The notes beneath the pieces are model-generated. The model worked only from the letters and a program-made list of their open reading frames with translations. It had not been told where the DNA came from and ran no database searches. This document shows positions 13,443 through 32,154 of a stretch of 32,154 nucleotides of DNA, one piece after another (position 1 is the first letter of the stretch; every line of letters begins with the position of its first letter). Both the position numbers and the translations under genes were made by a program. The DNA comes from a virus (taxonomy: Duplodnaviria > Heunggongvirae > Uroviricota > Caudoviricetes): the IMG/VR virus record IMGVR_UViG_2531839665_000013, one strand, 5' to 3'.

Positions 13443-13736
13443 TCAGGAGCGCGATTGCGTTCCTGCCAGGGGCGGCTGAGTTGTATACCCCTGTAAAGCT
13501 CTGCCCTGATTTCTCACAAACAAGCGGAGCCTTGTGTTTGCTTCGTGCCTTGCTCTGTTCTCCTTGCGGAATGAAACAGGCTCAGCGTCAAAAGTGATTT
13601 CGTATACCTCCGCATATTTCAGGGCGACCTTCCGTCTCAGTGACGGAGGCAGCCCCTGTAACTGCTGCTGAATCCACTCTTCGTCTGCCTGGCAGTACCT
13701 AGATGGCATTTCAACCCTGACTAAATCCTGTTGCAT
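13443..13736 (-). CDS. Hypothetical protein (97 aa) in cII-equivalent position
   Basis: ORF from track downstream of cro-like gene. Confidence 0.45.
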   Translation of the reverse strand: MQQDLVRVEMPSRYCQADEEWIQQQLQGLPPSLRRKVALKYAEVYEITFDAEPVSFRKENRARHEANTRLRLFVRNQGRALQGYTTQPPLAGTQSRS

Positions 13737-13866
13737 GGCTTACTCTTCCCGCTTCGCTATGAGGTTATAAACCCCGCTGATCGGGTCATACCATATGCTG
13801 CGTGGCAGCAGCTTCTGGAAGTAGCGCGGATCTGGCATTACGGTTGACTGTTGTGACATGTCACAC

Positions 13867-14067
13867 CTAACTATTTGTTTTCCGTAATGGAGAAAAAATG
13901 AGGCTCTCTTTAGATAATTTGAGGGTTGGTGAAACTTTAGATACCGCTTCCTCAATTCTTTCAGCCATTGCAACTGAGGGGCGCCTAAAACCCAGAGCCA
14001 TCTGGTTCAGGTATGCAACGCTAGTCCCAGATAACTGTGCCAGCCGCCTCCATTCATCCGCGCTCAT
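13867..14067 (-). CDS. Cro-like HTH regulator (66 aa from internal Met)
   Basis: AGGAG RBS 2 nt before ATG at 14067; helix-turn-helix-like segment ...LAQLSGTSVAYLNQMALGFRRPS...; divergent from the cI-like gene. Confidence 0.55.
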   Translation of the reverse strand: MSADEWRRLAQLSGTSVAYLNQMALGFRRPSVAMAERIEEAVSKVSPTLKLSKESLIFSPLRKTNS

Positions 14068-14125
14068 GACTCCTCTGATTGAGAGCAATACACTGGACAT
14101 AAAAAACCCCATACTGTATTGGTTA

Positions 14126-14178
14126 TTAGCAACGTGCTAACATTAGCACATGAGATCACAATACAGCAATACGCTGTA
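14126..14178. promoter_or_regulatory. Candidate operators in the cro/cI intergenic region
   Basis: Palindromes TTAGCA-ACG-TGCTAA (14126-14140) and TACAGC-AATAC-GCTGTA (14162-14178), plus a TTAGCA half-site at 14143-14148. Confidence 0.5.
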
Positions 14179-14205
14179 AAGCATTTAGCTAACAATGAGA
14201 CAAGC

Positions 14206-14661
14206 ATGGAAATCAAAGATATTCGCTTAAAAAATCTACAGACGGTAATCCAACGCAGCGGCTTAACCCAGACAGATCTGGCGTTAAAATGTGAGATATC
14301 ACCCTCACTTATAAGCCAAATAATGACTAAGCGCAGGAATATGGGAACTGCTCTCGCTAGAAAACTCGAGGGGCGACTGAGCCTATCAGAAGGATGGTTT
14401 GACATCCCCCACTCATTGCTGGATTCCCCATGGCATCTAGCTAAAATGAGGGAAAAGACTGGTGAGACCACTATTGATGAACAGCAACTAACTAAAAGAG
14501 AGACTCGACTTATTGAGTTATTCAGACAAATGCCTGAAAGCGAAAAAGACAGGATAATCAGTGAGTTATCTGAAAAGAAACGTAATTTTGACAAACTACT
14601 TGATGAGCTAATGGCTGTTAAAGCATCAAGAATGCCGATCGACAAAGACGAAAATGAATAA
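14206..14661 (+). CDS. CI-like repressor candidate (HTH, XRE-type; no S24 peptidase domain)
   Basis: Internal start MEIKDIRLKNLQTVIQRSGLTQTDLALKCEISPSLISQIM...; divergent from cro-like gene; C-terminal part is charged and helical, not LexA-like. Confidence 0.55.
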   Translation: MEIKDIRLKNLQTVIQRSGLTQTDLALKCEISPSLISQIMTKRRNMGTALARKLEGRLSLSEGWFDIPHSLLDSPWHLAKMREKTGETTIDEQQLTKRETRLIELFRQMPESEKDRIISELSEKKRNFDKLLDELMAVKASRMPIDKDENE

Positions 14662-14735
14662 TAAATACAACGCACTATAAAAAAAACAGCAAATATTAGC
14701 ATTTTGCTATTGTCAAGAATAACGCATAGCGCTAC

Positions 14736-14771
14736 ATTCACCTCAGCAAGTAAAAACAAGTGAGGTGAATG
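14736..14771 (+). promoter_or_regulatory. 11-bp perfect inverted repeat (CATTCACCTCA ... TGAGGTGAATG) whose 3' arm contains the Shine-Dalgarno of the next gene
   Basis: Read directly; arms 14736-14746 and 14761-14771, 14-nt loop; the GAGG RBS for the ATG at 14774 lies inside the 3' arm. Confidence 0.5.
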
Positions 14772-14773
14772 TA

Positions 14774-15217
14774 ATGTTAAATGATAAACATGACTCTTAT
14801 TCCGTAAACTCTCTGTTGATTTGTGCTCAAGCGGCACTATTAGGCGGTACCGCTTCAAACCATGACGTCATCAACCTCTTAGATGTTGCACAAGACATCA
14901 TCTCTTCAACTATGAATTCCTTTACAGATAGTAGCGCTCCCGGCGCTAATGTTGATTTATTTACCAAAGAAGTTAGCGCTAGTAATTCCCCAGCATTATC
15001 TTTCGGTCAACGTATTCTCCAAGCGCGTAAATCAGCAAGTCTTCAACAACATCATATTGCCAGCGGTGCTGGAGTGACTGTTCAGGCTGTTTCGTTATGG
15101 GAAAATGACTCAGCAATTCCTACTTGCGACAAAATTATCCCATTGGCAAATATTCTTGGCTGCGATCCAATGTGGTTACTGACTGGTGCTTATAAACAAA
15201 ATCAGGAGGAAGCATAA
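14774..15217 (+). CDS. HTH (XRE-family) protein with C-terminal DNA-binding domain
   Basis: C-terminal ...LSFGQRILQARKSASLQQHHIASGAGVTVQAVSLWENDSAIPTCDKIIPLANILGCDPMWLL.. is a typical XRE HTH; the track starts at GTG 14765, the ATG at 14774 has the better RBS. Confidence 0.6.
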   Translation: MLNDKHDSYSVNSLLICAQAALLGGTASNHDVINLLDVAQDIISSTMNSFTDSSAPGANVDLFTKEVSASNSPALSFGQRILQARKSASLQQHHIASGAGVTVQAVSLWENDSAIPTCDKIIPLANILGCDPMWLLTGAYKQNQEEA

Positions 15218-15218
15218 G

Positions 15219-15410
15219 ATGAAAATGTTCAGAGGCCTTACCAACGAACCGGAGACAGTTTTTCATCACATTGCCGTACTGCTTGAAGCGGGGTTAATCA
15301 TTTCGGCTTGCGGTGATGAAGAATGTGATGAACTTTCGGATGATATCTTTTTACTGGCACAACAATACGCCAGAAGCGCATGCGATGCATTTAAGGAGCA
15401 AAGAACATGA
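15219..15410 (+). CDS. Hypothetical small acidic protein (63 aa)
   Basis: AGGAGG RBS 8 nt before ATG at 15219 (the track ORF starts further upstream). Confidence 0.5.
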   Translation: MKMFRGLTNEPETVFHHIAVLLEAGLIISACGDEECDELSDDIFLLAQQYARSACDAFKEQRT

Positions 15411-18900: not shown

Positions 18901-20187
18901 ATGAGTAACGCATCATACCCGACAGGCGTTGAAAACCATGGAGGATCACTCCGTATATGGTTTCACTATAATGGCAAACGTGTCAGAGAAAACCTCGGTG
19001 TTCCTGACACAGCCAAAAACCGGAAGATCGCTGGTGAACTTCGCACTTCCGTTTGTTTTGCAATCAGAATGGGGAGTTTCGACTACGCCGCGCAGTTCCC
19101 TAATTCCCCTAACCTGAAACACTTTGGTCTGGGAAAAAGAGAGATAACCGTTAAGGCACTTTCGGAAAAATGGTTGGACCTTAAGAAAATTGAGATAGGA
19201 AGTAATGCATTCAGTCGGTATCAATCCGTGGTGAGAAACATGCTTCCTCGCATAGGGGAAAAACGTCTTGCTTCGTCGGTAACAAAGGAAGATTTACTGT
19301 TTATCAGGAAAGATTTGTTAACCGGGTATCATAATCTCTCTAACGGAAAAACAACGCCGATTAAAGGGAGGTCAGTAGTTACGGTTAATTACTACATGAC
19401 GACAATTGCAGGAATGTTTCAATTTGCGGCTGATAACGGCTATATCGTGTCAAACCCATTTAACGGCCTGACACCATTAAAGAGATCCAGAACAGAACCA
19501 GATCCGCTCACACGAGACGAATTTATTCGTTTTATTGATGCCTGTCACCATCAACAAACGAAAAACCTGTGGTCCTTAGCAGTATACACAGGCATTCGTC
19601 ACGGTGAGCTAATATCTCTCGCTTGGGAGGATATTGATTTAAAAGCTAAAACAATGACTATCCGTCGTAATTATACAAAACTCGGGGAGTTCACTCTACC
19701 AAAAACAGAAGCGGGAACTGATCGTGTTATTCATCTTGTTCAACCAGCTGTTGATGCCCTGAAAAGCCAGGCTGAAATGACAAGACTTGGCCCTCAGTAT
19801 CAAATTGACGTCAAGCTTCGGGAGTTCGGTCGCACTGCACGCCATGAATGCACGTTTGTTTTTAATCCGCAACTGGTGAAAAAATGCCAGCAAGTCGGTC
19901 ACCACTATAAAGCAGATTCCATCAGAGATTCCTGGGCATCTGCATTAAGGCGAGCAGGACTGCGGCACAGAAAAGCCTATCAGTCCAGGCATACTTATGC
20001 CTGTTGGGCATTATCGGCAGGAGCGAATCCAAGCTTCATAGCAAACCAAATGGGCCATGCAAATGCACAAATGGTATTCAACGTTTACGGAGCATGGATG
20101 AAAGATAACAATATCGGGCAAATAGAACTACTCAATAAGCAGTTGACGGAGAGTGTCCCATACATGCCCCATAGAGCCAGACTCTGA
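18901..20187 (+). CDS. int: Tyrosine integrase (lambda Int family)
   Basis: 428 aa; C-terminal catalytic region with ...YTGIRHGELISL... (Arg), ...HANAQMVFNVYGAWM... and RHTYA; N-terminal arm-binding-like region; last gene before the host junction. Confidence 0.9.
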   Translation: MSNASYPTGVENHGGSLRIWFHYNGKRVRENLGVPDTAKNRKIAGELRTSVCFAIRMGSFDYAAQFPNSPNLKHFGLGKREITVKALSEKWLDLKKIEIGSNAFSRYQSVVRNMLPRIGEKRLASSVTKEDLLFIRKDLLTGYHNLSNGKTTPIKGRSVVTVNYYMTTIAGMFQFAADNGYIVSNPFNGLTPLKRSRTEPDPLTRDEFIRFIDACHHQQTKNLWSLAVYTGIRHGELISLAWEDIDLKAKTMTIRRNYTKLGEFTLPKTEAGTDRVIHLVQPAVDALKSQAEMTRLGPQYQIDVKLREFGRTARHECTFVFNPQLVKKCQQVGHHYKADSIRDSWASALRRAGLRHRKAYQSRHTYACWALSAGANPSFIANQMGHANAQMVFNVYGAWMKDNNIGQIELLNKQLTESVPYMPHRARL

Positions 20188-20697: not shown

Positions 20698-22221
20698 ATG
20701 AAACGTGTAATCAGCTACATCAGATTCAGTTCTGAGCGACAAGCCAAAGGCGACTCACTACGCAGACAGTCTAAGATGGTTAATGACTGGCTTAAGGCTC
20801 ATCCTGAGTACTACCTTGACCAAGATTTATCCTTCCGTGATTTAGGTGTGAGTGGATTCACTGGTAAGCACTTGAAAGGTGGCTTAGGTGACTTCTTAAC
20901 CGCTATCGAGAAAGGGCTTGTTAAAGCTGGTGATACGCTCTTGATAGAATCTCTTGACCGTTTGTCACGTCAGGCCGTAGACCGAGCAAGTGAGCTATTA
21001 CGAAACATTCTTCGCTCTGGTGTAGATGTAGTCACCCTGTCCGATGGTGAACATTACACAAGTGAGTCTCTTAAAGACCCGTTAGCTCTGATTAAGTCCA
21101 TCTTGATTATGCAAAGAGCACATGAAGAGAGTCTGCGTAAATCTGAACGTATACAAGCTGCATGGAACCGTAAAAAAGAACTCATCTCTGAAGGTATCAA
21201 GATTTCTAAGCGTTGTCCTGCATGGTTAAGGCTGAATGATGACCGTAAAAGCTTCTCTGTAATCCCTGAGAAGGTAGAAACTGTGAAGAGGTGCTTTCAG
21301 CTACGATTAGAGGGTAAGTCTATCTGGGAGATTGTTCGGACTCTTAATGATGAAGGTCACCAGACGCTTAACCAGCACAAAGCGGGTTCATTTGGTCAAA
21401 GCTCAGTACAAGACCTTTTGAAGAATCGTTCTGTAATTGGTTACTTCACACCTAAAGGCTGTGAGGAGATATCTGGTTATTTCCCCCCTATCATCCCTGA
21501 GACTGATTTCTACAAAGTCCAGCAACTATCATATTCTCGTTATGGAAGAAAGCCTGCTTCAGATAAACCATTGAGTGTGAATCTCTTTAAAGGTGTTATC
21601 CGTTGTTCTGAATGTGGTCATGCTCTGATTATCACAGGCTTTAGCGATACAAGAAACGGGATTTATCGTTGTCCTCTTCGTAATGAAAACCGTTGTAGTG
21701 CTAAAGGGCTGTCACGTAAGCAAACCGATGGTACATTGCTTACCCTGCTATCTCGTCTTGACCGATTTGATAGCGATACGACGAATACCATAGATATGTT
21801 GAGGCTACACCGTGAACACATCTCAAGCAATATTGAAAAGCTGGTACAGCTATCACTTGAAATTGAAGATTTGTCAGCTATTACCATCAAACTAAAGCAG
21901 TTAAAAGGTGAGCTATCACAGGTTGATGCGGATATCGAGAAGGAGACACAACGCCTTAAATCTATTGATGTGGGGTGTTTGTCCGATTGTGACTTGACTA
22001 CAAAGGCGGGAAGGATTGAAGCACAACTGATAATCAAAAGTGCTGTTAAAGAGGTCGTTTTAAATACTGCTAAACGTCGCTGTAAAGTAACTTTTCACAA
22101 CGGTAAAGCAATCACCTTACCAATAACAGAAAACCCCTCAGAGGACGTTACAGAGGCTATACAGTCGCTTTCTGAAGTCACTGAGAGGGGGTTGATAGAT
22201 GTTGATGAGGTTATCATATAG
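20698..22221 (+). CDS. Large serine recombinase (resolvase/invertase N-terminal catalytic domain + recombinase domain + zinc ribbon)
   Basis: N-terminus VISYIRFSSERQ (catalytic Ser), ...LLIESLDRLSR...; 507 aa; Cys cluster CSECGH...YRCPLRNENRC; long C-terminal coiled coil. Confidence 0.88.
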   Translation: MKRVISYIRFSSERQAKGDSLRRQSKMVNDWLKAHPEYYLDQDLSFRDLGVSGFTGKHLKGGLGDFLTAIEKGLVKAGDTLLIESLDRLSRQAVDRASELLRNILRSGVDVVTLSDGEHYTSESLKDPLALIKSILIMQRAHEESLRKSERIQAAWNRKKELISEGIKISKRCPAWLRLNDDRKSFSVIPEKVETVKRCFQLRLEGKSIWEIVRTLNDEGHQTLNQHKAGSFGQSSVQDLLKNRSVIGYFTPKGCEEISGYFPPIIPETDFYKVQQLSYSRYGRKPASDKPLSVNLFKGVIRCSECGHALIITGFSDTRNGIYRCPLRNENRCSAKGLSRKQTDGTLLTLLSRLDRFDSDTTNTIDMLRLHREHISSNIEKLVQLSLEIEDLSAITIKLKQLKGELSQVDADIEKETQRLKSIDVGCLSDCDLTTKAGRIEAQLIIKSAVKEVVLNTAKRRCKVTFHNGKAITLPITENPSEDVTEAIQSLSEVTERGLIDVDEVII

Positions 22222-22235
22222 TTGAGATTCTATCG

Positions 22236-23009
22236 TCAGTATCGCTTGTTAGGATTAACAGAATACTTCTTCAAAGTACTACCTGTACCAGCATTATTAA
22301 GCACCTTTGAAGCTTGCTCATTAGCGGCATCTGAGAAGGTGCTTTTTCCATTCTCAACTTTGACACTTTTACCACAATTGATACGGGCTTGAAGTTGCTC
22401 ATTAGTGAGTTCACTCGTAGAGCGATTATATAGCTCCTGACACATCAACATACCATTACCTAAACTTGTTGTAGTGTTACCTGTATTCTTCTTACTGGTA
22501 GCACCACCATCATTCGTAGTCGCGGCTTTTCCAGTTGCAGCCGAGATATCAGTCTGTCCCACAACAGCTCTGAAGTTAATTTCCTGAAAAGTTAGTTGGA
22601 TTCTTAATCCGTTTGAAATTCCAACATCTTTAGAGGCTTTAAAACTCGTAATAATGGAATCATCAATCTTGATACCGTCTTTACAGATGACCGAAATAAT
22701 TTGCTTCTGGTCACGCCAGCTTTCGAGAGTGTCAATGAAGTTTTCTACTAATTGACCCTGACGAGTTAATAATAAGCTTCCTTCATAGCCAACTACAACG
22801 ACACCACTAATAGTGATTGTTCTGGGTGCTCTTTGCACATTATCTGTGACGGTTTGCCCTGATTGCATGTTCTGTGTAGTCACCTGCATAGGACTATCAA
22901 ATTCCATGTTTTCAGTTGCTGATAAGGTTAAGAAGGCATCTACATTGTCTCTTAAGTGGAAATAGATGCCATCTTTGCCACTATATCTAAGTTGTTTTTT
23001 GTCAAACAT
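22236..23009 (-). CDS. Hypothetical protein (257 aa) downstream of the tape-measure gene; possible distal tail protein
   Basis: Position only (gene after TMP); Thr/Gly/Asn-rich central region. Confidence 0.55.
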
Positions 23010-23098: not shown

Positions 23099-25147
23099 TC
23101 AATCATCTTCTGGATAGCTTGAACTTAATAGCGTAGCTTCTGCGTATTGGTCGTAGATATTACTGCTAAAGGTCATAAAGCTGGTTTCATCTGGTTTAAT
23201 GGCAACTTCACCACCAAGTGAAACTTTCACAGGCTCCTGAATACGTTTGCTCAAAGCACTAATTTCATCTCTCAGGCTTTGGATATCCGTATTCGTTAAT
23301 GCCGCATCTTGTCTCATGGTGATTAATTCTGGATGCTGGAAGTTAGCAAGATTCATAGCTGCACTATTAAACCAACCTTTCACATCATCCATAGTGAACA
23401 CTGGTTTAAGTCCAGACTCTTTAGCTAGCTCTGGTAATTTAGCTTGTGCTTCCATTCGTTCAGGTGTAGAAGCTAATCTCTCATAACCTGCATAGATAGC
23501 ACTACCAGCTAATAGCATATTCCCAAGATTAAACCTTGATGGTTTCCCGTTCTTTCTATTCACGTTATCCGCTGTAGTATCAGCGACCTGACCTAATCTT
23601 GTGATAGCAGTCATAAGCCCGTAAATACTTCTGGTTACACCAACAACTTTATTCACAGCAATAACACCAGCCAAGACTTTTAAACTATTAATCAAGCCAG
23701 AACCTAAAGCATCAACTACTTTCTTTTGTTCATCGGTTAAACCACGATAAGCTAATGTCACCTCATCGAAGAATGCTCTTACCCTGTAAGAAATATCGGT
23801 TAGTGAATCGACCCCATGCGACATATCACTCATCAAGCTACCAAAACTTTCACCTAATGTTTTACCACTCCCACCTAAACTATTTAAAAGATTGGTTAAG
23901 CTTCTTGTGAAATCTTGAAGACCATCTTCAGAACCTCTGAAGATATCCGTTAGTGAGTTGTTCCAAGTATTCTTCAAGTTCCCTAGCATTGTCTGCGTAG
24001 AGTCCTGAATAGCTTTCCAGCCACCTCTTGAATTAATCTGTGAACCAAGTTCTTTAGCAAACTTAGGGAGTGCATCAGAGGCTTTAACATCACCATTTTT
24101 CATCTTATCGAAAAGCTGTTTTTCAGTCAGACCTAAAGCCTTTGCAAATGCCTGAGTAGCACCCGGTAAAGCTTCAGATAGTTGCCCCTTAAGTTCTTCA
24201 GCCATCACCTGACCCTTAGAAGCCATCTGCGACACTGCGGTTAATGCTCTTTGAATCTGCTCATCTGAACGACCCATTAAACGAGAATAACCTGTAAGGT
24301 TTTTAAATAATTCCTCTGCCCCTTCAAGACCCATCGTGTTCTTTGCAGATGCACCAAATGAAGCAAATTGCGCTTGTGTTTCGGTTGTGTCCATACCAGT
24401 AATTTGAGTTAAATCCTGAATGAACTTTTTAACCTGTGTACTTTGGTCACCGAATACGAAATCAATACTTCTTTCCGATGATGCACGTTGAAGGCCAACT
24501 TCCATAATCTTCTGATAACTGGCTAATACAGCCTGAAAGCTGATAAATGCACCTGCTGTTTTAACTGCTGCTGAACTCAAACTATCAAGACTATTAGCTG
24601 CTCTGTCACCATTAATGCTGGTGGATGTATGACCTTTAGCTTTAGCAATTGCTTCTCTGACTGAAGCATTTAGCTGAGCCAGCTTCTCATTGAATTTTGA
24701 AGAATCCATTGAACCGGCTTTAGCAGATAGCCCGTAAAACTGAGATTTGATGTATTTCTGCAAAATAGGGTCAAAGCCTTTTAGCTTAGACATATTAGCT
24801 GAGTAAGCCGCTGTGATTGCTCTGTTGCCGCTAATTCGTGGCTGTCTTGGTTGTTTTGGAGGATTAACAGTGTCATTAAATCTGGTGGCAAACTGAAATG
24901 CTCTTGTGTTTCTTGCTCTCTGTTCAATCTTGTCAAAGGTCTTATTAAACTTCCTTTCAAGTTGCCCTAAAGAACTTGTCAGATTGCTGTCAAGCTGCTT
25001 TGTATTAATCCTGAAACCTTTATTTAGGTTCTTTTCAATTCTTTGTGCTGACTGCAAAGCTGCCTTTTCAACTCTTTGCAAGCCCTTAATAACGTTTTCA
25101 CTGAAGCCTAGCTCAACGATAAAACTATCAACTTTAAACTGTGCCAT
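23099..25147 (-). CDS. Phage tail tape measure-like protein (682 aa)
   Basis: Core motif ...MASKGQVMAEELKGQLSEALPGATQAFAKALGLTEKQLFDKMKNGDVKASDALPKFAKELG... is typical of tape-measure proteins; AAGAGGTGA RBS. Confidence 0.75.
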   Translation of the reverse strand: MAQFKVDSFIVELGFSENVIKGLQRVEKAALQSAQRIEKNLNKGFRINTKQLDSNLTSSLGQLERKFNKTFDKIEQRARNTRAFQFATRFNDTVNPPKQPRQPRISGNRAITAAYSANMSKLKGFDPILQKYIKSQFYGLSAKAGSMDSSKFNEKLAQLNASVREAIAKAKGHTSTSINGDRAANSLDSLSSAAVKTAGAFISFQAVLASYQKIMEVGLQRASSERSIDFVFGDQSTQVKKFIQDLTQITGMDTTETQAQFASFGASAKNTMGLEGAEELFKNLTGYSRLMGRSDEQIQRALTAVSQMASKGQVMAEELKGQLSEALPGATQAFAKALGLTEKQLFDKMKNGDVKASDALPKFAKELGSQINSRGGWKAIQDSTQTMLGNLKNTWNNSLTDIFRGSEDGLQDFTRSLTNLLNSLGGSGKTLGESFGSLMSDMSHGVDSLTDISYRVRAFFDEVTLAYRGLTDEQKKVVDALGSGLINSLKVLAGVIAVNKVVGVTRSIYGLMTAITRLGQVADTTADNVNRKNGKPSRFNLGNMLLAGSAIYAGYERLASTPERMEAQAKLPELAKESGLKPVFTMDDVKGWFNSAAMNLANFQHPELITMRQDAALTNTDIQSLRDEISALSKRIQEPVKVSLGGEVAIKPDETSFMTFSSNIYDQYAEATLLSSSYPEDD

Positions 25148-25850: not shown

Positions 25851-26555
25851 TCAAATAGCCTTGCTAAATTCTCGTGGAACACTCAGAAAATCATTGAAGC
25901 TGATAATCTGTGCCAACTCTTGACGGTACTCCTTAGCCAACGCTTGATGGTCACTAATCAGCTTAGCCAGTCTTGATTTCAGCAAATTAATCTCATTTTC
26001 TCTTGCTTTCATCAGTTTCTCTTTGGCAATTTCTTCAAGCTCAGCCTGTGATTTATCAGCAACAATTAGAGACAGTCGATGTGGTGCTCTGACAGCTCTT
26101 TCTGTACGAATAACTCTTTGACCTTCTGGTAAATCTGCAATCACTTTACCAATCTCTACAGGGTCATACCCCCAACCGTCACGGTCCAGTCGAGAGAAAT
26201 AAGCATAAGAATTGGTTTGAAGCTCCATCGAAATAGCCATTTCGTCAATTTCGTCTTCAAGCTTGGACTGAATTTTCTCGTAAACACTTCTCATTGCTTC
26301 TTGAGAGTCTTTAATAGCTTGGAAATATCGGCGTTGTAGCTTCAACTTCAAATCAAGTTCACACTGTTCGTTCATAGAAAAATCAATTTCAACTCTTGGA
26401 ATCTCGAGTGGTTCTGGTGGAATATATGGACCTTTATTTACTTCGTGTGATTCCCGCCAAGCTCTATCAAAAGATTCACGCAAAGTTAATTCGTGAATAT
26501 CAAGTGCACTTGGTCGGCTTTCAATAATCATTTCATTTTCATCACGGATAGCCAT
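25851..26555 (-). CDS. Hypothetical protein (234 aa), highly charged with coiled-coil character
   Basis: ORF from track. Confidence 0.6.
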   Translation of the reverse strand: MAIRDENEMIIESRPSALDIHELTLRESFDRAWRESHEVNKGPYIPPEPLEIPRVEIDFSMNEQCELDLKLKLQRRYFQAIKDSQEAMRSVYEKIQSKLEDEIDEMAISMELQTNSYAYFSRLDRDGWGYDPVEIGKVIADLPEGQRVIRTERAVRAPHRLSLIVADKSQAELEEIAKEKLMKARENEINLLKSRLAKLISDHQALAKEYRQELAQIISFNDFLSVPREFSKAI

Positions 26556-26890
26556 TAATACCTTTCCTCTTCTAAGATAATTTATGTTTCAGTTTTTAAA
26601 AAGCACACCTGACATCCTCGAACTTAGAAGAGGCTTAAAAGGCGGTTTGCCAAGTATGCTTTTTAAAAGCTGAAAAAGCCCTAGATAACTAAAACGCTAT
26701 AAAGGGCTAAGGTGAAGAAATTAAAGAACATCTAAAGGATTCAATGAATGAACAAAGACTTTTCGAGATGACCTCTCAGACTAACCTGAAAGGCCATGTA
26801 GCGAAAAGCATTGCACCTTTCCAACTCAGAATATAGTTATCATCGATGTAGAATGATTAATATTTTAATTCAAGGAGAATTGCTCCCCCT

Positions 26891-26922
26891 ATAGACTTCG
26901 GATAGAAGACTATCCTCATATA
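26891..26922. promoter_or_regulatory. 32-bp element, copy 2 (identical to 25175-25206)
   Basis: Read directly. Confidence 0.6.
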
Positions 26923-26979
26923 TACAATTATGTCATGCTCAAGGTTATTTGTCAACAGCTTTTAACAGATTGGTAACAT

Positions 26980-27045
26980 TTATACTTTAATAGATGCACC
27001 TGCAATCATACCAATCAATACAAAACAGATAATCACCAATCCCAT
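26980..27045 (-). CDS. Possible 21-aa hydrophobic peptide (MGLVIICFVLIGMIAGASIKV), TAATG-coupled to the upstream gene
   Basis: Hand-translated; start overlaps the stop of the 27045-27374 ORF. Confidence 0.25.
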   Translation of the reverse strand: MGLVIICFVLIGMIAGASIKV

Positions 27046-27374: not shown

Positions 27375-27523
27375 TTCCTAAAATCTCCTTTTTACCATAC
27401 CTCCTCAATCGCTCTGTAACGAGCTAAACAGTCTTTTTCAGGGGTAGCATGTAGGGGTGTACCACATACCTAAAATAAGATAGTTTTTTGCGTTAGAATG
27501 CGATTGAGAGCGTCTGAGAAGCT
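27375..27523 (-). repeat. Left arm of a ~150-bp imperfect inverted repeat (promoter/5' leader of the 27045-27374 gene)
   Basis: Aligns by eye with the reverse complement of 30293-30445; shared blocks GCTTCTCAGACGCTCT, TTAGAATGCG, TAAAATAA, GTGGTACA, CTACCCCT, GCTCG(T/C)TACAGAGC. Confidence 0.55.
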
Positions 27524-27552
27524 GTTTTTCTAATTTCTCTTAAAGTCTCGGA

Positions 27553-27753
27553 CTACCAATAACCTAATTCCGCTTTATTTCGTTCAAACCATTCCGCTGT
27601 AACTGCTGTCTTTAGTGTTGCGTTTGGGCTGGTGGCATGAATGAAGATATCTTTTGGATTGCAAGCATCACCGAAACCACCTTCTTTGATGAGCAGGTCT
27701 GATACATGCTTAATCATTTTATCTGTCAAATATTCGAATTTAATACATAGCAT
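27553..27753 (-). CDS. Hypothetical small protein (66 aa from the Met that overlaps the HNH stop)
   Basis: TAATG overlap with the upstream HNH gene; the track ORF extends to 27786. Confidence 0.45.
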   Translation of the reverse strand: MLCIKFEYLTDKMIKHVSDLLIKEGGFGDACNPKDIFIHATSPNATLKTAVTAEWFERNKAELGYW

Positions 27754-28310: not shown

Positions 28311-28865
28311 TTAAAATTCCTCTGCTTGTGCGTATACGTCAAATTCAAAGTCTGGTTCACTGGTTGTAAGGCTGATATTTCCAACTTCCGCATGATGATT
28401 AATTGTCTCAATAACTTTCATGCAAATAGTGGCTAAGTTAGCGCAATATTTATCACTTGGTAATTCGTAGCTAAGTCTGGTTGCTTGTCTTTGAAGATGG
28501 CTCGTCACTGTGCTTGAACTAATCTCATCAAGGCTTCGAAGCAAATAAAAAACCTTCCGGTGATAGTTATCCCTTCCAAAGCTGCGACAAGTACCGATAA
28601 TTACATCTTCAATTTTTGATGGTAGTTGCTCGTAAGAATCAAAGCTCATCAAGAAAGTTTTTAAAGTATTCTCTTTTTCTTTGCGTACTGGCATAAATCT
28701 GTCTCGTGGCGTAATGCTACGAATGACCGCTTCAATGTTTTTACGTTCGGTTTTGGAAAAGGCTGGTACTTCGTAGCTGGTGGGGGTGTCTGTGTAAGCG
28801 TAGGAGTTGTGCTTGTTGCGCTCTCTTGATGCTTGAAGCATCGCTCTAAATTCTCTGTCGTTCAT
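28311..28865 (-). CDS. Hypothetical protein (184 aa)
   Basis: ORF from track; first gene after the long non-coding region. Confidence 0.6.
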   Translation of the reverse strand: MNDREFRAMLQASRERNKHNSYAYTDTPTSYEVPAFSKTERKNIEAVIRSITPRDRFMPVRKEKENTLKTFLMSFDSYEQLPSKIEDVIIGTCRSFGRDNYHRKVFYLLRSLDEISSSTVTSHLQRQATRLSYELPSDKYCANLATICMKVIETINHHAEVGNISLTTSEPDFEFDVYAQAEEF

Positions 28866-29375
28866 TCATATTCTGACCCTCATGAAATGTTATTATTCTG
28901 TTAACTTATATATACAATACTAGCATTTTCAAAGACTAATGTCAAGTATTTTTTAACATTTCATTAACATCTGTGGTATAATGGTTCTATGAGAGAGGGG
29001 GAAATATGAAGCGTGGCTATGTATTTGGTCACATGTTTTTGCATTGCACACAGAAGGTACATTGAATGGTAAATCTCCCTCCTGAGCTGGGGTCACCTGA
29101 TGTATGGGCTGGTGGAGGTGTTGGGCTGATTGCAGGTCTTCTGCTCCGCTATTTCATCGTTCGGGTGTTTATCGTGTTCAGATTGTTTGGTCGTGAATGG
29201 TCATTTGACCTCAAGGACAGGACCAGAACAGACAACCACACAGACCCCCGTTAAACTCCCTTCAAATCCCCCTGTACGAGATGGTATAGGGGCATTTTTA
29301 GCATTTTGTGCTATCTATTAAAAAACAGCTTGACAGAACCGGAAGGCTGTATCTATCAAGTATTCACCCCTCTAA

Positions 29376-29530
29376 CAGTGATTTCTAAAAATGCTTATTT
29401 TTCAATGAGTTGTAATTAGCCAATATAAAGGACTGACAAGACTCTTCACAGAGAACTCTGTAACCTTAACATTGATTTCTAAAAGTTATTATTTTTCAAT
29501 AAGTTGTAATCACCCAATATAATAGCTGTT
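29376..29530. repeat. Two ~60-bp direct repeats (29376-29435 and 29469-29530) inside the coding-poor region
   Basis: (C)AGTGATTTCTAAAAATGCTTATTTTTCAATGAGTTGTAATTAGCCAATATAAAGGACTG vs ACATTGATTTCTAAAAGTTATTATTTTTCAATAAGTTGTAATCACCCAATATAATAGCTG; most positions agree. Confidence 0.6.
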
Positions 29531-30292
29531 CAGCACCTTCACAGGGAAACTTCAGAGGCCTTCTTAACCGTCCACTAATCGAGAGAGAGGGTGATACATG
29601 AGAAAGAACCCTCCCTTCTTAAAAACCTTCTTGACAATCTTTACAGACCTTGTTCAAGGTAATCACAATAGTTTTCTTCCCTCGGTTTCCTGTGTTCCTC
29701 GGTTTATCTATTGAGGGCTTTGAAATGTCCCTGTAACTTCCCTCTTAGACAGGGAAGAATAATATTGGTGACACAAGCGAAGCGCCCCTCTAAAAAGATT
29801 TTTTAGCTACTTTGTTTAAAAGCACATCAAACGATACATTTTATTGATTTAGGTCAAAGACAAAAGCATTGACAAAATGGTAAGATTGTTCACATGACCT
29901 TACTTAACAGATTCTTGAGAGCTTTGAAACGGCCTATTTAACAAGGTTACTACCTCTGGTCTTATCGCTCCCTCTTGGTAGTTCTGTTAAGAATTTTTCA
30001 GTTTTTATTCTTAAGATAATTGTTAAGATGATACTCTCCCCTTCGGGTTATATCGTATCTTTCCTCCCGTTAAACACTCCTTCCTAGCAACTTCATAGTT
30101 ATCTGTCAAGTACCTTTGAAGATTCTATCAAAACCCTCTAAATCCGACCTGATATAGAAGTTTTACAGGCATACTCTCTAGATACCATCAAGGGACACTA
30201 AGCGGGAGAGAGGATATGGTGACCATAGGGGAACCCCTCCTGTTAAAAAGACCACTTAGAAGTCTGAGACTTTAGTAAAATCTGTGAATATG

Positions 30293-30445
30293 GCTTCTCA
30301 GACGCTCTGTAACGCATTCTAAGCGATTTTACCCCTTTATTTTAAGATGGGTGGTACATACCTATAGACTACCCCTAAAACTGGGGTTAAAACTCGCTAC
30401 AGAGCTTTCTATGAGGTTTGGTAAGATTGTGCAAAATCTGTACAG
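30293..30445 (+). repeat. Right arm of the ~150-bp imperfect inverted repeat
   Basis: See the left arm at 27375-27523. Confidence 0.55.
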
Positions 30446-31070
30446 TAACTTTTCAGAGTCTGAAAATTTTTATAAAAATCATAGTAACCCCTCTACATTT
30501 CCCTTCACCGATAATCTTAAAAAATATCTACACAGTTGATTCGGTAGAATCTACCTCATGATTGATGGCTGTTAAGTACCCCAGATTCACGATATAGCAC
30601 CCCCTTTGCAAAAGCAGTTAAAATATCTATTGACTTTCTTCATAGCATCTGTTTAGCTCCACCTCAAGAAACCTTCACCACACTTCAAAGCATCTATCAA
30701 GAAGATTTAACCTATCAATAGCTGTAAAATTTTATAGTCCTGTGAAGTCCTCCCCAGTTTTCTCTGTAACAGCTACAAACTTCTGTGACCTTATGTATCA
30801 ATGACTTAGAATACATGCTCTCAAGGTTCTGTATAGTCTCTTATCATCCAATACATAAAACCCTTATAAATCAGTACTGATATGTATACAGTTCGTTTTT
30901 AACATAATAGCTGTTTTACGCACTAATCGTGTTCTACATGAAATCTGTATAGATATTAAGGTGTCTGTAAGTGATTTTTTAAGAGGAGCTACGAAGAACT
31001 ATAACCATCATCTCCTAACTTTCACATGAGAAACTGTTAATCAGCTTGATAGTTACACCATGTGACCAAC

Positions 31071-31318
31071 TGCATAGATAGCGTTATATAGCACTGTATA
31101 TAGCACTTTTCTAGGAGTCGAGAGAGGGACGACTAACACCCTGCATAGCTCCCTGAAAAGAGACTTCACAGATTCTTTATATATTTCAATAAGTTATGAT
31201 AAAAAGGGACTATACCGATACTGCATAGAATCTGTGTAGAATTGCATAGATACTTGGAAAAATGCCTTTAAATTGCATAGGTACTAACCTGTTTATGTCC
31301 TGTTATTTACAGGCATAG
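31071..31318. repeat. Iteron-like cluster: TGCATAG at 31071, 31142, 31222, 31244, 31274 (and GCATAG at 31313), plus TATATAGCAC x2 at 31086-31107
   Basis: Read directly. Confidence 0.55.
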
Positions 31319-31320
31319 CA

Positions 31321-32154
31321 TTATTGGTTAATTAATTCATCCGACTCTATATCATTACCTTTTTCTTTTTCCTTTTTAATTTTAGCCTCTACCATATCGA
31401 ACATTTTCATTGTCTGTGATGAAGTTAGCTCTTTCTTTTGTCGTAGTGCATTACGTATGGTAGAAGCTTCAATATCAGAAACTGTTAAAAGTTCTTCTAC
31501 CCTACTCTTCAATTGCTGTAATGAACGGCTATTATCAACTTTAAAGAAATCATCCATTACCTCAAGTGAGGCAACAATCAAATCCTGTAGTCTCTCTTTT
31601 TCTATCTCGATATTTTCAATGGTTTGTTTTTCTTTAGATACTAACTGCTTTAAATTATTAATTTCTTTCTGAATCAGTTTCTTCTCTGTCTGTAGCTCTT
31701 CTGTGACCAGCTCTTCACGCTTACCACGCTCTACTTCCGCTTTAATATCAGCATCAATTTTAGCATTTTCTTTCTCTTCTTCTCTGGCAACCCGAACCTT
31801 TAACCCCGTTAACCTGATTGAATTAAGGTATTCTTTTTCCTTTGTAAGATAAACATTTTCACTGTGTTTATCTGTAGCCCATTTTTGAGCAAGAGAAAGT
31901 AACCATTGAGCATAAGGAGTAATAACAGCTAGCACACTTCCAAAAAAGACAGGTGCTAACAGATAATGTACATAAAAATATTCCTGAGACAGAATATAAT
32001 CTATTCGAAACTTAACAGGAGCATCACTCATAAAGAGCATTGCTAAGTTAGGCCAATTGAACCATACCCATGCAAGAATGATATATCCCCATAATGGGCT
32101 TTTAATCCTATCGTTTATTGCTTGCATAGTAGAATCTAACCATCCATCACTCAT
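31321..32154 (-). CDS. Hypothetical membrane-anchored coiled-coil protein (277 aa); start codon at window edge, may extend beyond
   Basis: N-terminal hydrophobic segments (LWGYIILAWVWFNWPNLAMLF; LLAPVFFGSVLAVITPYAQWLL) followed by a long Glu/Lys-rich heptad-like region. Confidence 0.55.
   Translation of the reverse strand: MSDGWLDSTMQAINDRIKSPLWGYIILAWVWFNWPNLAMLFMSDAPVKFRIDYILSQEYFYVHYLLAPVFFGSVLAVITPYAQWLLSLAQKWATDKHSENVYLTKEKEYLNSIRLTGLKVRVAREEEKENAKIDADIKAEVERGKREELVTEELQTEKKLIQKEINNLKQLVSKEKQTIENIEIEKERLQDLIVASLEVMDDFFKVDNSRSLQQLKSRVEELLTVSDIEASTIRNALRQKKELTSSQTMKMFDMVEAKIKKEKEKGNDIESDELINQ

Follow-up and report, generated by a model that had tools for sequence, protein, structure and literature searches.

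A gene-free region in an 11-kb Escherichia coli island, homologous in part to non-coding DNA of Felix O1-like myophages, may be the control DNA of a new phage parasite

Satellite elements can carry a segment in cis that resembles the corresponding segment of their helper phage, as in the cos site of P4, which matches that of P2, or in the cos and pac sites of the phage-inducible chromosomal islands (PICI), and this resemblance lets the helper terminase act on them. The closest described system for the locus reported here is the PICI-like element (PLE) of Vibrio cholerae, a satellite of the virulent myophage ICP1, whose non-coding region contains several types of repeats together with origin iterons and is required in cis for PLE replication, and whose integrase is a large serine recombinase (PMC7145576). 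Our study has analysed a stretch of 32,154 nucleotides from the IMG/VR virus record IMGVR_UViG_2531839665_000013, hereafter the window, with particular attention to its interval 28866-31320, hereafter the gap. This interval had been described in an earlier note, made from the sequence alone, as a coding-poor, repeat-rich region and a possible non-coding RNA or regulatory hub. We found that the gap belongs to a mobile island of E. coli chromosomes, that it includes a truly gene-free stretch of 2.0 kb (~29300-31320) with strongly conserved blocks and without a coding signal, that one of its modules has a homologue in the gene-free region of Felix O1-like myophages, and that the island also occurs in a circular, apparently excised form. 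Neither an RNA gene nor a group of dead genes seems the best description of the gap, which may instead be control DNA of a new phage parasite.

The explanation that we prefer, and to which we would give somewhat less than an even chance, is that the gap constitutes cis-acting DNA of a satellite-like island, with a layout comparable to that of the PLE non-coding region, in which the phage-derived module would serve as a replication or packaging handle. The island resembles PLE in its small size and chromosomal location, in its large serine recombinase, in its long, repeat-bearing gene-free region, and also in its virulent myophage partner, which in our case is a proposed one. It differs from PLE in that no sequence or protein homology was found between them, in that no initiator of the RepA_N type was recognised when ten island proteins were compared with Pfam, and in that the present island carries homologues of tape-measure and Dit proteins along with a piece of phage non-coding DNA and is known here from sequence alone. 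Since no homology was found, we do not claim that the island is a member of the PLE family.

From position 1 to about 20630, the window corresponds to a lambdoid prophage on an Escherichia-type chromosome, with 100% identity to sequenced E. coli strains. A second element starts at about 20650 and runs to the end of the window (32154); it is a separate island of ~11.3-11.6 kb located in yecE, in tandem with the lambdoid prophage. Its genes follow the order serine recombinase, Dit-like, tape-measure, several small uncharacterised genes, a truncated HNH gene, the gene of a 184-aa protein, the gap, and a gene for a coiled-coil protein. Because the gene set of ~11.3 kb is flanked by the two halves of yecE in relatives, the interval 28866-31320 is part of the mobile island and not of the prophage. 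Other copies of the island adjoin yciI (yciI/kch) or ymdF (ymdF/rutG), which makes at least three insertion sites overall. The DNA of the gap is present in 547 of the 5,426 complete E. coli genomes, in every case on the chromosome; no match was obtained when a plasmid collection was searched with it, and Escherichia albertii was the sole match besides E. coli in a collection of genome species. Our search of the literature on serine-recombinase islands in yecE and on satellites of Felix O1 found nothing specific to this island.

The circular form was identified in a metagenome contig of 11,233 bp (ERZ506742 NODE-633, our locus L046), whose 55-nt terminal overlap indicates that it is a circle and which joins the recombinase side of the island to the right end of the gap. 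When this contig was compared with an integrated copy that is 98% identical (L055), the two arms overlapped by 10 nt, as expected of an attachment-site core, and the same junction was found in a second, independent contig of 23 kb that contains more than one unit in head-to-tail arrangement (OOBX01000469.1, 23,009 bp; L062 and L070). The circular contig is consistent with precise excision, and these two contigs, together with the recombinase gene and the yecE halves, describe what is expected of a satellite in this respect, namely an integrated element with its own recombinase that is excised precisely. In the circle, about 110 nt separate the start codon of the recombinase from the right end of the gap, whose + strand is the sense strand of the recombinase gene; in variants without the coiled-coil gene, the gap is therefore directly upstream of the recombinase gene once the island is excised. 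Many further metagenome contigs have sizes of ~11-12 kb, that is, the size of the island. Contigs of ~87-88 kb that encode the 184-aa protein were also considered as phage-sized concatemers, and this idea was rejected, given that the places retrieved were ordinary chromosomal contigs.

The connection with phages is provided by the module at 30426-30711 (+ strand), whose homologue in Felix O1-like myophages lies in their gene-free region (nhmmer E 7e-19). It matches 33 phage records, and the matches listed are Felix O1-like myophages, belonging to Felixounavirus or Mooglevirus where they have been classified. The homology extends over about 200-290 bp and reaches 93% identity in its core (30520-30562); the elements common to islands and phages are TTTTTATAAAA (30467-30477), AAAATATCT (30521-30529), the invariant 27-mer GTTGATTCGGTAGAATCTACCTCATGA (30535-30561), and the pair CCCCTTTGCAAAA..TAAAATATC (30601-30627). 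In the phages, the matches always fall within an unannotated region of ~1.7 kb, which in the Ounavirinae phages VpaE1 and Moogle is a stretch of 1.65-1.75 kb without annotated genes, located between two convergent gene blocks (L014 3412-5163, equivalent to 13529-15280 of the VpaE1 record, and L015 3455-5090 for Moogle). A profile search of the phages with the whole gap recovered this block and one weak second match, and the reverse search, made with the phage region, found no other part of it on E. coli chromosomes, this part being present in 99 genomes at the sensitivity of that search. Among four phages, conservation within the phage region is highest in the 40-nt bin that holds the core. 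In two loci (L025, ~4505-4555, and L061), an insertion of 22 nt keeps and lengthens the GGTAGA/TCTACC hairpin of the core, which hints at a structure-dependent site; the core hairpins fold no better than shuffled sequences (z -1.25 and -1.62). Both regions are gene-free and rich in short motifs on the same strand, which in the phages are TAACA(A/G), CTTAACA, and CTAACAAG, with 23 occurrences in one kb versus a genome mean of 1. The orientation of these motifs appears to flip towards one end of the phage region. The rest of the island gap differs in having no phage counterpart.

Several phage records open close to this block. The record of phage pEP20 opens 12 nt past the core, and many others open within ~1 kb of the block; in addition, the 64-bp terminal overlap of KMM2, a Nanopore assembly that was called complete for its terminal repeats (bioRxiv 10.1101/2023.06.01.543199), maps inside it. 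These observations are suggestive of a position near the ends of the phage genomes. The island is in this respect similar to P4 and the PICI, since its 200-290-bp block matches a phage region inside or adjoining which two phage records open, and it differs from them in that the packaging role of the block in the phage is putative, many islands do not have the 24-nt core, and no marker genes of P4 or PICI are present. A further link with the same phages is found in the tail genes. The Dit-like protein of the island (22236-23009, - strand) is 81% identical over 256 aa to ORF066 of VpaE1, and its tape-measure protein (23099-25147, - strand) is 31% identical over 510 aa to ORF065 (both by tblastn, and both also recognised with Pfam), with the same gene order in the island and in VpaE1; no other island protein matched VpaE1. 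The two proteins could remodel or poison the assembly of the helper tail.

Conservation of the gap was evaluated by aligning the window to 19 related sequences, of which 14 come from E. coli genomes, one from E. albertii, and four from IMG/VR contigs. Pairwise identity reaches 0.90-0.97 in the blocks 28900-28980, 29260-29500, 29780-29900, 30500-30600, and 31100-31260, compared with 0.77-0.84 in the adjacent gene of the 184-aa protein, and where the 184-aa protein is only 65-66% identical, the gap still aligns with 79-91% identity at the nucleotide level. As judged from this alignment, several blocks of the gap are under purifying selection. Most of the interval is non-coding, non-random, and selectively constrained, and its description as a regulatory hub pointed in the right direction, as promoter-like and other repeated elements are present in it.

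The direct repeats seen by the earlier note are two 56-nt copies (29373-29428 and 29467-29522, + strand) with 88% identity and 94 nt apart, whose copy number differs among relatives. Each of them contains the 14-mer TTTCAATRAGTTRT (at 29400 and 29494) and a weak arrangement of a -35 element, 17 nt, and TATAAA or TATAAT. With its third occurrence at 31184, the 14-mer is found three times versus 0.10 expected; most island relatives have two or three copies, which keep their position and orientation in the cases that were mapped, and it is absent from the phage loci. It corresponds, with one mismatch, to WATCAANNNNTTR, the consensus of the integration host factor (IHF), and is in this sense IHF-like by sequence. 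Immediately to the left of the repeats, in a block with 0.94 pairwise identity (29260-29420), there is a predicted promoter-like element (29330-29359, + strand) composed of an A-tract, TTGACA, 18 nt, and TATCAA, with two flanking copies of TATCTAT, a motif that occurs 10 times in the window versus 3.7 expected, seven of them in the gap. The most conserved block of the gap (29780-29900, + strand; 0.92-0.97) includes TTGACA (29869-29874) and TGGTAAGAT, which is similar to an extended -10 element (29878-29886); a 24-mer taken from it is present in 19 of the 20 sequences and retrieved 39 metagenome stretches. At the right end, the conserved block 31070-31316 (+ strand) contains five copies of TGCATAG, all on one strand (31071-31274), and the third TTTCAATAAGTTAT (31184-31197); in relatives that lack the coiled-coil gene, the distance between this block and the attachment site is ~30 nt.

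These features resemble those of iteron-type origins, which also have oriented direct repeats (here the 14-mer three times and the 56-nt repeat twice), IHF-like sites, and an A/T-rich element such as TTTTTATAAAA; the differences are that no cognate initiator gene has been identified, the model of the 184-aa protein being without a fold match, and that repeats spaced by 94 nt and 1.7 kb do not resemble the tight arrays of plasmids. The inverted repeat of the earlier note also stands, between 27493-27559 and 30256-30322, and in relatives it extends by BLAST to ~27393-27554 versus 30260-30424. The latter is a palindromic module of ~120-165 nt (+ strand), an inverted paralogue of the upstream region of the gene for a 109-aa protein (27393-27554), and it forms a long imperfect hairpin that folds better than shuffled sequences (z -3.8, and -3.0 for the paralogue). 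Likewise, the recurrence of CTCTGTAAC was reproduced at 27412, 29456, 30305, and 30762 on the + strand and at 22147 on the - strand, that is, five occurrences versus 0.12 expected, a number reached by none of 100 shuffles.

The left part of the interval does contain a gene. The statement that no open reading frame (ORF) of 60 aa or more with a convincing start exists there was wrong, since the region 29066-29254 (+ strand), noted previously as a GC-richer island, is an ORF of 62 aa (58-62 aa in relatives) that encodes a predicted membrane protein (MVNLPPELGSPDVWAGGG...). Codon periodicity within the interval is confined to 29060-29240, that is, to this ORF, which is intact in 19 of the 20 sequences by a strict alignment test, the twentieth having the same protein and stop, and which RefSeq annotates as a coding sequence in six relatives (L010, L012, and L020-L023). 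It is preceded by a strong promoter-like site on the + strand within a conserved block (28953-28982; TTAACA-18-TATAAT with the extended -10 TGgTATAAT, 11 of 12 matches) and followed by an intrinsic terminator (29269-29292, + strand), the sole strongly conserved hairpin of the interval (z -4.1; structure conservation index, SCI, 0.92). On these grounds, the ORF is a genuine small gene; its protein has no family match. Divergently, a promoter-like site on the - strand (28917-28945; TTGACA-17-TAGTAT with TG), in a block with 0.92-0.94 pairwise identity, faces the gene of the 184-aa protein and the leftward operon. In 15 of the 19 relatives, 97 additional bp separate the 62-aa gene from the promoter-proximal mini-ORF, and eight have a further 30-51 bp (at 29054/29055 and 29016/29017), which indicates that the copy of the window has a shortened leader.

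The other genes of the island provide few clues. When its proteins were compared with PHROGs, Pfam, NCBIfam, and PADLOC, recombinase, tape-measure, Dit-like, and HNH domains alone were recognised, and a sequence search against the PDB gave nothing useful. The large serine recombinase (20698-22221, + strand; Pfam Resolvase, Recombinase, and Zn_ribbon_recom) is at the island end opposite to the gap. The 184-aa protein (28311-28865, - strand, transcribed away from the gap) has no family match, and its AlphaFold model (pLDDT 70.6) gave no Foldseek match in the PDB with E < 0.4. The gene of the coiled-coil or membrane protein (31321-32154, - strand), which is cut by the end of the window, is optional cargo; several relatives lack it, and there the gap abuts the end of the island. 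Two names that appear in public annotations of some strains were not supported by family searches: that of "transposase" (PGAP/RefSeq) for a 234-aa protein (25851-26555), whose AlphaFold model, mostly of long helices, was too poor to be used (pLDDT 54.5), and that of "myosin/kinesin family protein" (RefSeq) for the product of 31321-32154; both probably reflect a coiled-coil composition. Homologues of the 234-aa and 184-aa proteins (P0153, P0096, P0059, and P0060) were observed in Citrobacter freundii, Salmonella enterica, and Shigella sonnei, which are hosts of phages of the Moogle and Felix O1 types. The island has two more gene-free stretches, 26556-27044 (490 nt) and 27375-27552 (178 nt, with the palindromic paralogue of 30260-30424), and about one quarter of it is non-coding when these are counted with the gap. 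The neighbouring lambdoid prophage, which uses the same gene, yecE, as the island, encodes a tyrosine integrase (18901-20187) that is followed by a fragment of yecE; between 6632 and 7206 it carries AgvB (96.5 bits), STnc100 (149.7 bits), and two tRNA-Arg genes. A further tRNA-like match at 7138-7206, the third, is weak and is not called by ARAGORN.

The main rival of the explanation by cis-acting DNA, which we regard as rather unlikely, is that the gap works as a scaffold for the exchange of cargo, made of leftover intergenic modules (promoters, leaders, and terminators) between which accessory genes come and go, in part because homing endonucleases drive recombination with co-infecting phages; the window would then be a low-cargo version of the island and the phage-like block a by-product. 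Relatives do differ in the genes that they carry inside the gap or at its end (a Dam methylase in L024 and L071, an AP2-annotated gene in L013, a 182-aa ORF in L046, and a coiled-coil or 221-aa gene), and the module 30260-30424, a copy of the upstream region of a gene, immediately precedes the AP2-annotated gene of L004 and of L013 and is an orphan in the window. An HNH gene lies next door as well, and nucleases at exchange boundaries are described for ICP1 and PLE (PMC10055350). A mere scaffold does not, however, account well for the non-coding backbone of at least 2 kb that is retained in every variant with or without cargo, for several blocks being more conserved than the coding flanks, for the same 14-mer in most relatives and at the same positions where mapped, or for the fact that one specific piece of the phage region alone is found in chromosomes.

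The other three explanations are weaker. A role as unstructured RNA is improbable in our judgement: rightward promoters would give long, C-rich, G-poor untranslated transcripts, acting as a leader or attenuator of the recombinase gene (for example, as a substrate for Rho-dependent termination) or as antisense or sponge RNAs for phage or host transcripts. Such transcripts would agree with the promoter-like elements on the + strand at 28953, 29330, 29495, 29878, and 30419, with the negative GC skew across 29500-31500, with the location of Shine-Dalgarno-like (SD-like) GAGAGAGGG sites in local hairpins (z -3.2 at 29580), and with the circular form, in which the + strand leads into the recombinase gene. 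Against this, promoter-like sites are no more common than in shuffled sequences (13 versus 16.1), the flanking minus-strand genes have the same GC skew, and no terminators delimit discrete RNAs. Nor was a described RNA family or a sustained conserved fold found for the riboregulators suggested by the earlier note, as Rfam had no match in the interval at the gathering score or at E<5, and RNAalifold in sliding 100-nt windows on both strands, with column shuffles, gave energies of ~0 to -10 and an SCI mostly < 0.4, the sole strong signal being that of the terminator, with a few tiny hairpins besides. It is very unlikely that the gap represents the remains of protein-coding genes of a degraded prophage. 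Its strand skew is like that of the neighbouring minus-strand genes, and some relatives have an internal stop or an insertion sequence (IS) in the tape-measure gene or in a gene next to it (L007 7668-9716 and 10044-10748; L001 5511-7026), but the substitutions across 29300-31316 have no 3-nt periodicity, no ORF is conserved except that of 62 aa, and conservation is above that of a live neighbouring gene. Moreover, annotated relatives, many metagenome contigs, and a circle all share the ~11-kb architecture, and nucleotide searches against phage records and plasmids were empty outside the one block of ~290 bp, a six-frame protein search of the gap not having been run. Least likely of all, and hardly to be expected, is a cluster of translated mini-ORFs behind the GAGAGAGGG sites. 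Of the four SD-like sites previously noted, three are exact and lie in the gap (28991, 29583, and 31120), two of them followed by an ATG, while the fourth (30206) has one mismatch, and with one mismatch allowed the motif is only weakly enriched in the whole window (10 versus 4.5 expected, a count that 3 of 100 shuffles reach). The 38-codon mini-ORF (29598), however, is intact in one of the 20 sequences, the window itself, the ATG being replaced with CAG or AAG elsewhere; the stretch with the 19-codon ORF (29006) varies from 58 to 210 nt, mostly in lengths that are not multiples of three; the third is in a poorly conserved stretch; and in-frame conservation with codon-type substitutions was seen in the 62-aa ORF alone.

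If the gap is cis-acting DNA of a satellite-like island, its 2 kb would act as DNA, and the phage machinery for replication, packaging, or both would recognise the phage-derived module, with the result that the excised circle would be amplified and packaged. The outcome could be satellite-type piracy or, alternatively, a decoy that harms the phage. The IHF-like repeats may help to assemble a nucleoprotein complex, and the rightward promoter-like elements would reach the recombinase gene in the circular form only.

It is important to consider that a number of observations weigh against this explanation, of which every functional step is one that we infer. The 24-nt core behaves as a discrete insertion or deletion, present in 28 and missing from 37 of 65 sequences in a survey that took in phage loci and some island loci ending before the core. 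The islands without it include the circular contig L046, so that the core cannot be essential for excision and may be dispensable altogether. A second type of helper was considered for the core-less islands, and the alternative segment of one of them (L005) had no match in phages, which leaves this idea without evidence. The dense TAACA(A/G) arrays of the phage region are absent from the island, and we found no described function for that region in the literature on Felix O1. The literature disagrees on how these phages package their DNA: the Felix O1 paper inferred short terminal repeats, found the large terminase subunit alone, and did not discuss the gene-free region (PMC3185647), whereas headful packaging is assumed in other papers (PMC5543628, PMC13431587), and beyond these conflicting statements we found nothing specific about the termini. 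The ends of phage records are not proof either, because they can be arbitrary. No capsid, terminase, portal, or replication initiator was recognised in the island with PHROGs, Pfam, and NCBIfam, most of its proteins being uncharacterised. Both partners have homing endonuclease genes, which could account for DNA being shared without a function in common, and the stops and IS insertions of some relatives are also compatible with a decaying element; part of the family may be decaying.

A more specific proposal, which we put forward as doubtful, is that the gap would be the cis control region (origin and/or packaging handle, plus recombinase control) of an undescribed satellite family of E. coli, Shigella, and Citrobacter that parasitises virulent Felix O1-like myophages, an enterobacterial counterpart of PLE. 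Such a family would copy DNA from the chromosome end of its helper and would use its own tape-measure and Dit proteins to redirect or poison the assembly of the helper tail.

Even in a cautious reading, 2 kb of constrained non-coding DNA in a mobile element of 11 kb is unusual. The 27-nt core that islands and phages share suggests that the phages have a functional site within their 1.7-kb gene-free region, and it offers a handle on where their chromosomes start, replicate, or are cut. Typing, biocontrol, and therapy of Salmonella and E. coli make wide use of Felix O1-type phages, and DNA matching the gap is present in about one in ten complete E. coli genomes. Should the islands turn out to exploit or block these phages, they would represent a determinant of phage success and gene transfer that has so far gone unrecognised, as well as a rare second case of a satellite whose helper is virulent.

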